DNA from: Elusimicrobia bacterium GWC2_64_44
GTDB taxonomy: Bacteria > Elusimicrobiota > Elusimicrobia > Elusimicrobiales > UBA9959
DNA length: 64,000 nt
Reading direction: 5' to 3'
Assembly: GCA_001799845.1 (NCBI GenBank)
Contig: MGUG01000013.1
Span: 22,597-86,596, forward strand
A program made the translations under genes and the position numbers. Of the stretch, positions 84-63,926 are shown one piece after another. A model generated the notes under the pieces. That model ran no database searches. It had not been told where the DNA came from and saw only the letters and a list, made by a program, of their open reading frames with translations. Within the stretch, counting starts at the first letter, position 1; the number at the start of each line of letters is the position of its first letter.

Positions 84-114
84 ATTCTACCAAACAAAAC
101 CGCCGGCCGGCTTT
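84..114 (-). promoter_or_regulatory. punctuation module, degenerate stem + TTTTGTTTGGTAGAAT
   Basis: GCCGGCCGGCGG palindrome, then T-tract and TAGAAT (84-89). 6 nt to ATG 77. Confidence 0.55.
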
Positions 115-117
115 GCG

Positions 118-756
118 CTACTTGCCCCCGGCTTTCAGCGTGGCCGGCGCCAGCGCCTTCTCTATGTCCGCCGCCAGGGCCTCGGGCTTCGTCGCGGAGG
201 CGTAGCGGGCCAGCACATGACCTGTCCTGTCCACCAGGAATTTGGTGAAGTTCCATTTTATCGCTTCGCTGCCCAGCACGCCCGGCACCGTTTTCTTCAG
301 GTACACGTAAAGCGGGTCCGCGCCCGGGCCATTCACCTCCAGCTTGCCCAGCACCGGGAAGGTGACGCCGTAAGTCAGCCTGCAGAAACGCTGTATCTCG
401 GCGTTGGTACCTGGCTCCTGGTCGCCGAACTGGTTGCACGGAAAACCGAGGACCACCAGGCCTTGCTCGGCGTATTTTTTATGCAGCTCCTCCAGGCCCT
501 CGTACTGAGGGGTAAAGCCGCATTTGCTCGCCACGTTGACGATGAGGACCACCTTGCCCCTGAGCCCTGCCAGGGGATAGGCCCCGCCCTCGGCGTTCTT
601 GACCGTGAAGTCGTAAATTGTGTTCTCCATGACTTTCTCCTTCGGCGCTGCGGTTTCCTTCCCTCCGGCTGTTGTCTTGCCGCGGGTCGGCCCCGCGGCA
701 AGACAGCAGCCGCCAAAAACGGTTATCCCCGCGCAGATAAGCAACGCTTTGGTCAT
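118..756 (-). CDS. glutathione peroxidase, probable lipoprotein
   Basis: GPx motifs NVASKCGFT, FPCNQF, WNFTKFL (Cys, not Sec). Signal peptide with FGGC lipobox-like site. Start trimmed from 879 to ATG 756 behind GGGAGG. Confidence 0.85.
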   Translation of the reverse strand: MTKALLICAGITVFGGCCLAAGPTRGKTTAGGKETAAPKEKVMENTIYDFTVKNAEGGAYPLAGLRGKVVLIVNVASKCGFTPQYEGLEELHKKYAEQGLVVLGFPCNQFGDQEPGTNAEIQRFCRLTYGVTFPVLGKLEVNGPGADPLYVYLKKTVPGVLGSEAIKWNFTKFLVDRTGHVLARYASATKPEALAADIEKALAPATLKAGGK

Positions 757-870
757 ATTCCCTCCCGGCAGCGCCTTACATATAGTAAAGCTGAAAATCC
801 GGCGGCAGGTAACGGCTTGCTTCCCACTTCCATTGACCCTTTTCCCCTTTGCGGTCGAAAACCGGCCAGG

Positions 871-901
871 GCAAAGCAAAAACCGCCGGGGTCACCGGCG
901 G
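871..901 (-). terminator. module hairpin (7-bp stem) + TTTTTGCTTTG
   Basis: CCGCCGG-GGTCA-CCGGCGG at 883-901, downstream of the stop at 936. Confidence 0.7.
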
Positions 902-935
902 TTTGGCGGCGGCGCGGGCGGCGGGCCCGGCGGCT

Positions 936-1778
936 TTAGTCTTTCAAGGCGTCCGACGCATACTCCAGCCGGGTGCGGTAGGCCGCGGCCTTGGTGTCCT
1001 TCAGGCAGTTCAGCCAGATGTCCCAGGTGTCACGGTCCCGGTCCTGCGCCGCGAGCTTCGCGGCCTCGGCCTGGTTGGCGGGCGGGGCCTGGAACTTCTT
1101 GCTGTTCTGGGCAAGCGCCATCATCCCCGCAAAGTCGCCCTGCGCCTTGAGCTCCTTCATCTTTTTCTTCAATTCCTTCGCCTCGGCTTTGTCCTCGTCG
1201 GAAACCTTGTTCTTCCTGCCGGCGGCTTTGAGCCTGCCCTCGTCCGGGTGGGCCAGCTTGTGGGCGCGCGCCAGCAGCACGCCGGCCTCGTCGCCGTCCT
1301 GGCCGGCCGACCGGCGGAAATAGGCGCTGTCTATCCCGCCATATTCCTTCTCCAGGGCTTTCAGTTCCGCCTCTTTATGCCGCCCGGCGCTGACCTGGGC
1401 GAAGAGCTCGCCGAACGCCTGGTGCGGCGGCCGCTTTTCGGTCCTGGCCGTCACGCGCACTTCCAGTACTGTCTGCTCCCGCGAGCCCACTTTTTTGGTG
1501 TAGGTGACGTCGAAGCCGGCTTCCCCGTCGCCGCTGTAAGGCTTCACCTTGTCGCCCGGCTTCAGGCGCGCCTCGAAATATTTCCGCACGGCGGCCAGGT
1601 CGTCCTTGCTGAGGCGGGCCAGTTTCCCGGCGCCCGACGCCGTGACGCTGCCCGGGTAGAGCGGCATCGGGTGCGCCGCCAGTACTTCATCGCCGCCGTC
1701 GGCGCATAGCGTGCCCGGAGCAAAACCCTGCCCCGCCAGGCAGAGCGCGGCCGCGGCTAACAAGTTCCTGATCTTCAT
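936..1778 (-). CDS. secreted hypothetical protein
   Basis: Signal peptide MKIRNLLAAAALCLAG. ATG 1778 preceded by GGGGAGG. Lys/Ala/Glu-rich, no family recognised. Confidence 0.6.
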   Translation of the reverse strand: MKIRNLLAAAALCLAGQGFAPGTLCADGGDEVLAAHPMPLYPGSVTASGAGKLARLSKDDLAAVRKYFEARLKPGDKVKPYSGDGEAGFDVTYTKKVGSREQTVLEVRVTARTEKRPPHQAFGELFAQVSAGRHKEAELKALEKEYGGIDSAYFRRSAGQDGDEAGVLLARAHKLAHPDEGRLKAAGRKNKVSDEDKAEAKELKKKMKELKAQGDFAGMMALAQNSKKFQAPPANQAEAAKLAAQDRDRDTWDIWLNCLKDTKAAAYRTRLEYASDALKD

Positions 1779-1842
1779 ATGGCAGTTCCTCCCCGTTTCC
1801 CCTGAATGTATGATACTAAAACTTCTGTTCCCGGTCCGCCGC

Positions 1843-62490: not shown

Positions 62491-62571
62491 ATTCTACCAA
62501 AACAGAACCGCCGGGCTTCCCCGGCGGCTTAAGAGCGAACGTCAGTTAGTCATCTAGTGATCAGCGTCCCC
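62491..62571 (-). promoter_or_regulatory. full module: type-A stop block + hairpin + TTCTGTTTTGGTAGAAT
   Basis: Stem-loop 62508-62527 (loop CTTC). Block GGGGACGCTGATCACTAGATGACTAAC. 6 nt to ATG 62484. Confidence 0.65.
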
Positions 62572-62572
62572 A

Positions 62573-63025
62573 TTATTCCTTCGACGGTTTGTCACCAGCC
62601 CCCGCGCCGAAGAGTTTCTGGAAGGCGGCCATTTCCATGGGGTGCATCTCCATGTCGCCCCGGCCGCGTATAGTGAAGTTTATCCTGTAGTTTTTCTTTA
62701 GCGAGAGCATGGCGTACTGGGCCTCGTTGGGGTTGAGCGCAAGCACCACCCCGTGCAGATCGCCCTTGTCTACGGTATCGAGCACCAGCACGTTCTGCAG
62801 TATGGTGGCGGTGAGCGTCTGCGTCCCGTCCTTCATGACGGCGTCGAAGGTGACCGTCATGTCCAGGCGGTCGCCGGGCTTAATGTAATGCAGCTCCACC
62901 CGCTCCGTGGGCACCACCGTGGCCCTGTAGCCTGGCGGCACGTTCAGCTTTGCCGCGCCTGCGAAGGCCGCCCCCGCGCACACAGTCATTACCGCCGCGA
63001 ATACCGCTATCCTGGTAGTTTTCAT
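62573..63025 (-). CDS. secreted RcpC/CpaB C-terminal-domain-like protein
   Basis: Signal peptide. IKPGDRLDM...ILQNVLVLD...VVLALNPNEAQ...L pattern of the CpaB beta-clip domain. GGGAGG SD. Confidence 0.5.
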   Translation of the reverse strand: MKTTRIAVFAAVMTVCAGAAFAGAAKLNVPPGYRATVVPTERVELHYIKPGDRLDMTVTFDAVMKDGTQTLTATILQNVLVLDTVDKGDLHGVVLALNPNEAQYAMLSLKKNYRINFTIRGRGDMEMHPMEMAAFQKLFGAGAGDKPSKE

Positions 63026-63120
63026 ATATCCTCCCGGGAATCCTATTTTAGAGCTGTCCGCAGAAACACGGCCTTACGTTCACTCTCACTTATGATTACG
63101 CCCGCGGAGGAAAAGTATTA

Positions 63121-63176
63121 CAAACGAAACCGCCGGGTTCCCCCGGCGGCTTAAACACGAACATCAATTGGGATCA
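63121..63176 (-). terminator. module: block variant + hairpin + TTTCGTTTGTAATACT
   Basis: Stem-loop 63130-63149 (loop TTCC). Block GGGAGAACGTTGATCCCAATTG contains the racemase stop codon. Confidence 0.6.
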
Positions 63177-63884
63177 ACGTTCTCCCGCGGCGCGCAGGGC
63201 GGCGCGGGCCAGCAGGCGGGTAGAATCCAGCAGCGGCAGGGAGGTATCCCCGGGGCGCAGCAGCAGCGGGATCTCCGTGCAGCACATCCCGGCGCAGTCG
63301 CAGCCTTCGCCGTGCACACGCTCTATCACTTCCAGGAAATATTCGCGCGCCTCAGGCGTAACGCGCCCCTCCGTAAGCTCGCCGAATATGAAGGCGTTGA
63401 TTCGCTCCCGCTCGGCCTGCGCCGGTATGCGGCACTCAAGGCCGGCCGCCGCGAGCCTGGCCGGGTACACCGGCCCCTCCATAAGGTAGCGCGTGCCTAG
63501 CAGCGCCATGCGCCGGCAGCCCAGTTTGCGCGCCTCGGCGGCCACCTCGTCGGCTATATGCAGCCAGGGCAACGGCGAGCGCCCGGCAAAATGGTCCATG
63601 GCCTGGTGTATGGTGTTGTCCGGCGTGATCAGGAAATCCGCGCCCGCGCCGGCCAGCACCCGCGCCGAGCCCAGCATCAGCTCCGCCACGCCGGCCCAGT
63701 CGCCCTTGTTTATATGGCGCATGTACTCCGCCAGCGGGTAGGTGTGCATGGTGACTTCCGGGTGAAAGGACTTCTCCCCGGTAAGAGCCGCGCCCTCGGT
63801 GCAGATGGTCTGGTAGCACAAAGCCGCCCCCGGCGCGCTGCAGCCCACTATGCCTATATGTTTGAACCCGTTTCGTTCGGCCAT
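63174..63884 (-). CDS. aspartate/glutamate racemase family protein
   Basis: IGIVGCSAPGAALCY and CCTEIPLL catalytic-Cys contexts. ATG 63884 is 6 nt after TGGTAGAAT (63891-63896). Confidence 0.8.
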   Translation of the reverse strand: MAERNGFKHIGIVGCSAPGAALCYQTICTEGAALTGEKSFHPEVTMHTYPLAEYMRHINKGDWAGVAELMLGSARVLAGAGADFLITPDNTIHQAMDHFAGRSPLPWLHIADEVAAEARKLGCRRMALLGTRYLMEGPVYPARLAAAGLECRIPAQAERERINAFIFGELTEGRVTPEAREYFLEVIERVHGEGCDCAGMCCTEIPLLLRPGDTSLPLLDSTRLLARAALRAAGER

Positions 63885-63890
63885 AACGCA

Positions 63891-63926
63891 ATTCTACCAA
63901 ACAAAACCGCCGGGATTGCCCGGCGG
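63891..63926 (-). promoter_or_regulatory. punctuation module: hairpin + TTTTGTTTGGTAGAAT
   Basis: Stem-loop 63907-63926 (loop ATTG). 6 nt to ATG 63884. Confidence 0.65.

Follow-up and report, generated by a model that had tools for sequence, protein, structure and literature searches.

A lineage-specific family of near-identical terminator-like hairpins, often joined to a promoter-like box, in uncultured Elusimicrobiales

The locus and its repeated hairpin

The window considered here encompasses 64 kb of chromosomal DNA from an uncultured member of the Elusimicrobiales (Elusimicrobia bacterium GWC2_64_44, contig MGUG01000013.1) and is part of a 92-kb groundwater metagenome contig. A short GC-rich hairpin of 20 bases and nearly constant sequence recurs in its intergenic regions, and this hairpin family, together with the T-rich tail and the promoter-like box that often follow it, is the subject of the present analysis. 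By their Pfam matches the genes of the window are ordinary chromosomal ones, and include those for a PAS-GAF histidine kinase, trehalase, MatE, RsgA, NDK, MsrAB and PlsY. A phage collection gave no match to the window, a tRNA search found none, and there are no Rfam matches at gathering score.

The exact pattern CCGCCGGG-N3-5-CCCGGCGG is found 31 times in the window, against 0.00 expected from 100 dinucleotide-preserving shuffles. With one mismatch tolerated in each arm, the copies at 883 and 54888 are found as well, giving a total of 33 CCGCCGGG-N3-4-CCCGGCGG hairpins, 31 exact and two near-exact (Table 1). These are the same 33 left-arm positions that an earlier note on this DNA had listed, and the excess bears out its view that the copies belong to one sequence family rather than sharing a mere shape. 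All 33 have one polarity and, when read on the minus strand, consist of the hairpin followed by TTTTGTTTTG. In 31 cases the hairpin lies 9-124 nt, and typically 20-50 nt, past the stop codon of a minus-strand open reading frame (ORF) of at least 60 codons, in keeping with the intrinsic-terminator geometry, hairpin and then T-tract, that the note had described. Every copy is intergenic, as had also been claimed; none falls inside a gene once over-extended start codons are corrected. The hairpins are single, one per spacer, and stand 0.3-7.5 kb apart.

The statement that a copy sits at almost every gene boundary proved too strong, since about 33 of the roughly 75 boundaries have one, yet among boundaries with a gene 3' end and 40 nt or more of intervening DNA the share is around two thirds. 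The family hairpin is absent where genes overlap or are tightly packed. At convergent junctions the plus-strand side of the hairpin is T-rich too. The seven sites previously put down as half or degenerate copies (near 99, 13584, 20680, 33284, 41561, 53300 and 56474) are genuine partial copies, with one arm or a degenerate stem, and most of them retain the T-tract and TAGAAT.

One stem among the predicted terminators of the clade

At the RNA level the stem contains eight base pairs, all of them G:C, and is extended by two or three A·U or G·U pairs, formed between a 5' RAAR tract and the first U residues of the tail, to a length of 10-11 bp. The hairpin unit has a fold energy of -21.6 kcal/mol, as against -10.1 ± 2.5 for shuffled sequences (z = -4.5). 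A consensus was derived from 282 non-redundant oriented copies, pooled from all sources. It has the tail TTTTGTTTTG and the 5' flank G-C-R-A-A-R, and the loops are mostly NNAG (GAAG 99, AAAG 21 and GCAG 14, versus CTTC 2). The frequency of T in the tail is 0.83-0.97 at +1 to +4 and +6 to +9, where positions +1 to +5 are partly set by the retrieval pattern; the window copies, which were gathered without that pattern, have the same T-rich tail. A stable GC-rich stem-loop, an adjoining U-tract and sense placement after a stop codon, the features by which an intrinsic terminator is recognized, are thus all present.

When the window was scanned for terminator-like hairpins, essentially every strong site was a family member. 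A second, independent terminator scan, of the segment from 44 to 64 kb, returned 12 top sites that all belong to the family and a remainder at chance level. Across 148 kb of DNA from the clade the stem is common to 57-60 of 63 stringent terminators; 1.2 Mb from 76 loci of other lineages yielded 13 stringent terminators, each with a different stem. In its GC-rich stem-loop, 7-10-nt U-tract, 5' A-tract, post-stop placement and use of one hairpin by convergent genes the family mirrors canonical intrinsic terminators, including bidirectional ones. Ordinary genomes, however, contain many different terminator stem sequences, whereas about 90-95% of the strong terminators in this clade have one 8-bp stem and the tail TTTTGTTTTG, across species and over 44-68% GC.

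A promoter-like box joined to the tail

The sequence TA(N)AAT is found at a fixed distance, +10 or +11, after the hairpin in 15 of the 33 window copies and in 117 of the 282 copies overall. The longer motif TTTG(N)TANAAT occurs 26 times in the window, compared to 0.31 expected (about 80-fold), and on the gene-sense strand in 24 of these cases. Among the 282 copies the first ATG or GTG is most often 6 nt past the TA(N)AAT box, which is the spacing expected of leaderless mRNAs. The TTTG(N)TANAAT box is also present without a hairpin, both in the window and in one outgroup genome. Canonical -35/-10 promoter sites occur at chance level, and on this ground conventional promoters of that type after the hairpins were rejected.

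We infer that the final TTTG of the tail also belongs to the promoter of the next gene, as the TG extension of its -10 element, TTTG(N)TA(G/A)AAT, and such sharing would explain the fixed spacing between hairpin and box. That the tail runs into a box often 6-7 nt before ATG suggests a terminator fused to a leaderless promoter. This probable second use of the T-tract, as the upstream part of a frequently leaderless promoter, had been missed in the earlier note. The divergent spacer at 20655-20708 looks like a pair of back-to-back leaderless promoters on a former terminator. The boxes resemble the leaderless promoters of Actinobacteria and Deinococcus-Thermus, which have a -10 element of the TANNNT type 6-7 nt before ATG or GTG, no Shine-Dalgarno sequence and no -35 element. 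They differ in that the -10 element is TG-extended, its upstream T-rich part is the U-tract of the preceding terminator, and the spacing to the hairpin is fixed at 10-11 nt.

Distribution of the family

Among species-representative genomes the closest relatives of the window RsgA come from four Elusimicrobiales/Elusimicrobia metagenome-assembled genomes (MAGs), at 88, 79, 70 and 70% identity; beyond these the identity is at most 46%, in other phyla. In the four corresponding loci (L008-L011) there are 7-12 copies per 21 kb, which agree with the window in stem, tail and box, and 76 RsgA loci of other lineages contain no exact copy of the hairpin. A scan of metagenomes gave at least 115 loci with the family hairpin, at a GC content of 0.44-0.68. 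Multiple copies are found in each of the low-GC loci, and base composition thus does not account for the stem; its presence in loci of 44-50% GC led to the rejection of a high-GC by-product.

Along the gradient of RsgA identity, the genomes at 69% or above have the family (L117 lies on the contig of the 69% homologue), and it is absent from outgroup Elusimicrobiales at 62, 61, 60, 58 and 57%. The family therefore arises at one node of the tree. These outgroups possess few, varied terminators and no other stereotyped stem, which disposes of the idea that sister lineages have variant stems of their own. One outgroup locus, L203, has a prophage-like block (12358-21026; terminase, portal, S78 protease and capsid) next to rsgA, with no family hairpins.

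The earlier note could not match the repeat to a described element, and the same holds for the wider searches made here. The IMG/VR, phage and plasmid collections gave no full match to the hairpin, Rfam gave matches at chance level only to a 550-nt region of L131 with four family copies, and a literature search for a described Elusimicrobia repeat or terminator returned nothing relevant. The family is not catalogued in any collection searched. A known RNA family or tRNA-linked element was rejected on the Rfam and tRNA searches. A phage genome with repeated terminators was likewise set aside, in view of the missing phage-collection match and the chromosomal housekeeping and regulatory genes. 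Integron attC sites were rejected, as no paired RYYYAAC/GTTRRRY surrounds the hairpin and no intI was found, and because hairpins follow housekeeping genes (rsgA, ndk, trehalase) at orthologous sites.

Orthologous sites and selection on the stem

Alignment of orthologous intergenic regions, a comparison that the earlier note had looked to, reveals that the stem is conserved between the window and L008. The proteins are 75-89% identical, and the spacers from stop codon to hairpin have diverged while the stems are identical; at one site the hairpin, tail, TAGAAT and start codon are 100% conserved. At a convergent, bidirectional terminator (6678-6697, and 8681-8700 in L008) the sole difference is an inverted loop, GCAG versus CTGC, which amounts to a flip of the palindrome center. 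A family copy follows rsgA in four of five genomes. From these stable orthologous positions most copies look old and vertically inherited.

Variants of the stem are strand-asymmetric, with 26 of the G·U type and eight of the A·C type (p = 0.003). Compensated pairs are also found, for instance CTGCCGGG...CCCGGCAG, for which both intermediates occur in L165. The types of variant pair were tabulated in place of a formal covariation analysis, as the copies were collected by similarity to the consensus and are biased accordingly. Taken with the loop bias, the asymmetry between G·U and A·C points to the sense RNA, and not duplex DNA, as the target of selection.

Copying, inverted-repeat modules and an insertion sequence

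About a quarter of the copies (about 26%) are preceded by a GGGGACGCTG module. These modules are the terminal inverted repeats (TIRs, 24-27 bp) of 59-85-bp elements that resemble miniature inverted-repeat transposable elements (MITEs). Many copies thus have a MITE terminal repeat on their upstream side, another feature that the earlier note had missed. TA is usually found on one or both flanks of the elements, and (GA)TA often stands before their ends. About 800 kb of clade DNA contains 135 distinct GGGGACGCTG sites, of which 63 are fused to the family hairpin at a distance of 31-33 or 45-47 nt, with identical junctions on many different contigs. At L177 3151-3285 a complete TA-flanked MITE encloses the hairpin, the tail and CTAGAAT. 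In sharing spacers with 59-85-bp inverted-repeat elements that can overlap gene ends and are usually TA-flanked, the clade is reminiscent of genomes with Correia elements (CREE) and other MITEs, and the fused elements bring a terminator and a -10 box with them, like MITEs that bear promoters or terminators. In contrast, the family hairpin with its tail has no TIRs and no target-site duplication, most copies are MITE-free, and the GGGGACGCTG TIR is unrelated to Correia.

Two 81-nt blocks in the window, 46502-46582 and 52722-52802, are 91% identical. In two genes whose proteins (171-172 amino acids) are otherwise unrelated, the block encodes roughly the last 10 residues (...AVKGRGR*) and contributes the stop codon, the terminator and the TAAAAT box, and it has evidently rewritten both 3' ends. 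Its presence on unrelated gene ends is direct evidence that the hairpin cassette was copied. The propagation proposed in the earlier note is hence borne out for some copies, namely this cassette and those fused to MITEs; most look vertically inherited.

An autonomous transposon bounded by GGGGACGCTG was rejected, as TIR pairs 0.4-4 kb apart enclose Ada/MGMT and rubrerythrin-like genes and no transposase. The motif was also considered as a C-terminal peptide, a three-frame stop cassette, an opposite-strand ECF-type promoter and a structured 3' untranslated region (UTR) RNA, all of which were dropped since it forms the 59-85-bp elements; it has stop codons in all frames because it is AT-rich. 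A further small hairpin module, CCCGACA(G/C)GCCCTTGTCGGG, stands just downstream of some terminators (45799-45822 and 58204-58227, and also in L185 and L142), and the intergenic DNA of the clade is a mosaic of several short repeat modules, similar to bacterial interspersed mosaic elements (BIMEs).

An IS3-family-type transposase gene (HTH_21 + rve + rve_3) is located at 57027-57704 (+), with a probable orfA upstream at 56602-56880 (+); an ORF6N-domain gene comes after it (57637-58116, -). The IS3-type element begins exactly where the family hairpin at 56457-56485 breaks off after a CTAC loop, which suggests insertion in or beside the terminator and subsequent rearrangement. The earlier note had stated that the window contains no RAYT, integrase or competence gene. 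The rve transposase contradicts it as regards an integrase; among the available Pfam matches, which cover most window genes, there are no RAYT (Y1_Tnp) or competence-gene domains.

Features of the window

The coordinates of the copies, modules and boxes are collected in Table 1. The GC content falls from about 0.65 in positions 1-28000 to about 0.55-0.60 in 28000-64000. The loops switch from ACAG/GCAG in the first 28 kb to mostly GAAG, the dominant loop of low-GC relatives; the MITE modules and the insertion sequence cluster in the second part, perhaps a region that is more fluid or was acquired more recently. The segments 50714-50801 and 53341-53428 form an 88-nt repeat with 85% identity. Between the gene at 50803-51243 and its terminator there is a fragment like the 3' end of the PEMT-like gene 53347-53904, probably a gene remnant. 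Genes with ADP-ribosyltransferase exoenzyme, clostripain (C11) and NADase_transloc domains (53976-54836, 26757-28037 and 13593-14339, all on the minus strand) are possibly toxin- or effector-like, with no relation to the repeat.

Table 1. Family hairpins, partial copies, associated modules and boxes in the window, with examples of MITE-like elements from related loci
Position	Strand	Feature	Remarks
873..901	-	variant hairpin CCGCCGGT-GAC-CCCGGCGG, tail TTTTTGCTTT	34 nt past stop of 370-codon minus-strand ORF
3745..3781	-	hairpin, loop GCAG + TTCTGTTTTG + A + TAGAAT; GTG start 6 nt on	hairpin, tail and -10 box 100% identical in L008 orthologous spacer
4919..4948	-	hairpin, loop ACAG, degenerate tail, after rsgA	orthologous position filled in L008, L009, L010
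6668..6697	-	hairpin, loop GCAG, convergent junction, both sides T-rich	L008 orthologue has flipped loop CTGC
9018..9047	-	hairpin, loop GCAG + TTCTCTTTTG	
10420..10455	-	hairpin, loop CGCC + TTTTGTTTGA + TAAAAT + 6 nt + ATG	
11044..11080	-	hairpin, loop ACAG + TTTTGTTTTTG + TAGAAT	
12919..12954	-	hairpin, loop GTAG + TTTTGTTTTG + TAGAAT + 6 nt + ATG	degenerate GGGGAC... module upstream
16081..16110	-	hairpin, loop ACAG, convergent junction	
19556..19595	.	hairpin, convergent junction, U-tracts both sides	loop ACAG in sense of plus-strand MatE gene
23635..23664	-	hairpin, loop ACAG, convergent junction	
25890..25919	-	hairpin, loop ATAG + TTTTGCTTTA	
28488..28523	-	hairpin, loop GAAG + TTTTGTTTTG + TAGAAT	
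31625..31661	-	hairpin, loop GAAG + tail + TAGAAT	GGGGACGCTG module before, no co-oriented ORF before
32668..32697	-	hairpin, loop GGAG, convergent junction	GGGGACGCTG module upstream
36370..36406	-	hairpin, loop CCAG + tail + TAGAAT	upstream of trehalase
40663..40691	-	hairpin, 3-nt loop AAG + TTTTGTTTGG	
42379..42408	-	hairpin, loop GAAG + TTTTATTTTT	
45823..45852	-	hairpin, loop GTAG + tail	then CCCGACAGGCCCTTGTC module
46503..46538	-	hairpin, loop CAAT + tail + TAAAAT	within 81-nt cassette 46502-46582
47698..47733	-	hairpin, loop CAAT + tail + TAGAAT	
48937..48966	-	hairpin, loop AAAG + tail	
50679..50708	-	hairpin, loop GAAG + tail	
52723..52758	-	hairpin, loop GTAG + tail + TAAAAT	within 81-nt cassette 52722-52802
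53911..53948	-	hairpin, loop GAAG + tail + TAAAAT + 6 nt + ATG	
54878..54907	-	variant hairpin CCGCCGG-GGCCGA-CCGGCGG + tail	
55606..55635	-	hairpin, loop GAAG + tail	GGGGACGCTG module upstream
58228..58257	-	hairpin, loop TAAG + tail	GGGGACGCTG module upstream, CCCGACAGGCCCTTGTC module downstream
58544..58579	-	hairpin, loop GAAG + tail + TAGAAT + 6 nt + ATG	
60150..60185	-	hairpin, loop GAAG + tail + TAAAAT	
62491..62527	-	hairpin, loop GAAG + tail + TAGAAT + 6 nt + ATG	module upstream
63120..63149	-	hairpin, loop GGAA + TTTCGTTTGT	
63891..63926	-	hairpin, loop CAAT + tail + TAGAAT + 6 nt + ATG	
84..111	-	degenerate copy GCCGGCCGGCGG + TTTTGTTTGG + TAGAAT + 6 nt + ATG	
13575..13591	-	solo 3' arm CCCGGCGG	weak T-tail
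20655..20708	.	divergent spacer with decayed hairpin between two outward-facing TTTG(N)TA(N)AAT boxes	each box 6-7 nt from ATG
33273..33291	-	solo 3' arm + TTTGG + TAGAAT	
41545..41578	-	degenerate hairpin CCCGGGGAGGTCCGATGG + TTTTGTTTTG + TAGAAT + 6 nt + ATG	
53300..53312	-	solo 5' arm (CCGCCGGG in minus sense)	
56457..56485	-	truncated copy, 3' arm + tail + TAGAAT	other arm replaced at start of IS3-like element
31670..31704	-	GGGGACGCTG module (MITE-type terminal repeat)	just 5' of hairpin
32707-32741, 46542-46576, 52762-52796, 55640-55674, 58272-58306, 62544-62578		further GGGGACGCTG modules	
39511..39521	+	stand-alone TTTGATAGAAT box, no hairpin	7 nt before ATG
8530-8540, 15330-15340, 28047-28056, 20698-20708		other TTTG(N)TANAAT boxes without hairpin	
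L151 4372-4430, L175 854-934, L189 3530-3612		MITE-like elements, examples	

Interpretation

In basic nature the family is probably an ordinary intrinsic terminator; it stands out in that the stem is almost wholly standardized, a promoter-like box of the leaderless type is fused to the tail, MITE-like modules are associated with it and its phylogenetic onset is sharp. The repeats are probably a lineage-specific family of near-identical Rho-independent terminators, kept alike by common origin, copying and purifying selection. RNA polymerase would pause at the U-tract, the hairpin, which has a 4-nt and mostly NNAG loop and is followed by UUUUGUUUUG, would form, and the transcript would be released. 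Between convergent genes a single palindrome with T-tracts on both sides would terminate transcription in both directions. In about 40% of copies the TG-extended -10 element in the tail may restart transcription 6-7 nt further on, often exactly at the ATG, to give a leaderless mRNA, and the unit would then be a compact mark, terminator and promoter in one, that separates single-gene or short transcription units. The uniformity of the stem would reflect common origin and later copying, including that of cassettes fused to MITE-like modules, along with strong purifying selection on the sense-strand RNA stem that purges single changes in any of the G:C pairs.

Several points weigh against this explanation. 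Around three quarters of the copies have no adjoining mobile-element module, and no autonomous transposon with GGGGACGCTG ends was found in the roughly 800 kb of clade DNA. The orthologous copies look vertically inherited, so ongoing copying is seen for a minority only. The only clean presence/absence difference seen concerns one hairpin with its tail (26 nt), which both L008 and the more distant L011 have and the window lacks; it is best read as a deletion in the window. Since the metagenomic loci were gathered by exact match, exact stems are over-represented among them. Structural purifying selection gives no obvious reason why no lineage has drifted to another stem, even at 45% GC, and structure does not obviously account for the conservation of the G residues at +5 and +10 of the tail where no promoter follows. 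Finally, termination, promoter activity and leaderless starts are read from the sequence alone, and the copying mechanism is deduced too.

The peculiarities of stem and tail bear on the main alternative, that the stem has been, from the base of the subclade, a recognition code for a trans-acting factor and that the sequence itself is selected. The factor might be a 3'-end RNA-binding protein (a termination helper, an exonuclease barrier or an Hfq/ProQ-like partner) or a dimeric DNA-binding protein that recognizes the palindrome. It would explain the absence of drift and the persisting tail G residues, and it fits with a stem that is invariant over 44-68% GC and down to 69% RsgA identity while loops and flanks change, a presence/absence boundary in the phylogeny that is sharp with no gradual decay, and a tail, TTTTGTTTTG, that is kept as sequence even at promoter-less convergent sites. 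We nevertheless regard it as unlikely. There is no candidate factor to point to, G·U and compensated variants are tolerated as they would be under plain structural selection, and no lineage-specific variant consensus of the kind often exhibited by co-evolving recognition systems is seen. The palindrome, moreover, covers a -35 position only where a promoter follows, and more than half of the copies have none. A different role in the transcript is that of a 3' stabilizer or processing site within polycistronic RNAs, as for repetitive extragenic palindromic (REP) sequences in E. coli, with the TAGAAT boxes incidental. Such a stable stem would block 3'-5' exonucleases, and the next ORF often begins about 22 nt away or less, too close for a conventional -35/-10 promoter to fit in between. 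Stabilization, though, does not need the conserved U-tract right after the stem, which termination does; T-tracts occur on both sides specifically at convergent junctions; and the TTTG(N)TANAAT box is enriched about 80-fold, matches the gene strand, is found also without hairpins and has leaderless-start spacing. This role is consequently very unlikely.

Mobility and exchange of DNA provide two further explanations. If the hairpins were primarily selfish palindromes, either REP/RAYT-like or the interior of a MITE, their likeness to terminators would be incidental or co-opted. The cassette copied onto unrelated gene ends, the roughly 26% of copies fused to GGGGACGCTG modules, the full TA-flanked MITE that holds a hairpin, the BIME-like mosaic of modules, the sudden appearance at one node and the insertion sequence that adjoins a truncated copy can all be read in this way, and like REP, BIME and REPIN sequences these are short, GC-rich palindromes outside genes, which number in the hundreds, lie at gene 3' ends and form mosaics with other motifs. 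The earlier note's REP/RAYT analogy fails on detail, however. The family lacks a GTAG-type head, the upstream consensus being G-C-R-A-A-R; its palindrome is perfect rather than imperfect; and its copies are single, not doublets. Each copy is followed by a U-tract, the window yielded no RAYT, and about 800 kb yielded no autonomous element whose ends match. Strict polarity, the fixed U-tract, placement 20-50 nt after the stop codon and bidirectional use between convergent genes indicate function rather than neutral spread, orthologous positions are stable between species, and most copies have unique flanks, all of which makes a selfish origin of this kind quite improbable. The arms could instead constitute a DNA uptake signal of the type represented by the Neisseria DUS and Pasteurellaceae USS, in which inverted pairs have been co-opted as terminators. 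About 55% of the high-confidence terminators of Neisseria contain a DUS (Kingsford et al. 2007, PMC1852404), and there, as here, one short sequence forms both arms of many terminators and is common to related species, which would favor exchange within the clade. Other Elusimicrobia (Endomicrobium, Elusimicrobium) possess comEC, comF, comM, dprA and type IV pilins (PMC8809381). DUS and USS, however, have a strong single-copy excess genome-wide, including within genes, whereas the arm 8-mer outside hairpins occurs 57 times in 148 kb (both strands), exactly the median (rank 35 of 70) among C4G4 8-mers. The defining pattern is therefore lacking and the DUS analogy of the earlier note is not upheld. 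With no linked uptake machinery, no competence gene among the window Pfam matches, and loop and G·U asymmetries that point to a constraint on RNA rather than duplex DNA, an uptake signal is the least probable of these explanations.

A more far-reaching proposal combines several of these elements: one terminator-promoter cassette would have served as the standard gene mark since the base of the subclade, installed and renewed by copy-paste, of which the MITE-fused cassettes that alter gene 3' ends would be examples, with its stem read as sequence by a clade-specific factor. That reader would be a hairpin-binding termination or 3'-end protein, or else a receptor for the whole DNA palindrome. We consider the proposal doubtful, albeit worth stating, for if true it would be a standard for transcription units that is coded in sequence, borne by mobile elements and found in nature.

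Significance

The present work corrects the DUS analogy and identifies the MITE family that accompanies the hairpins. The motif also has practical uses, as a sharp marker by which metagenomic contigs can be assigned to this lineage and the ends and starts of genes called in its MAGs, and as a compact natural terminator-promoter part. A natural comparison is offered by the hairpin-bearing genomes and their sister lineages with few, varied terminators, and it could show whether intrinsic terminators can spread by copying instead of each arising separately and whether stem sequence, beyond stability, is selected. If the reading as a terminator family holds, the clade shows how far the punctuation of bacterial transcription can be standardized: a single 30-nt signal would end most transcripts, its tail would be reused for the next promoter, and many mRNAs would begin at the ATG.

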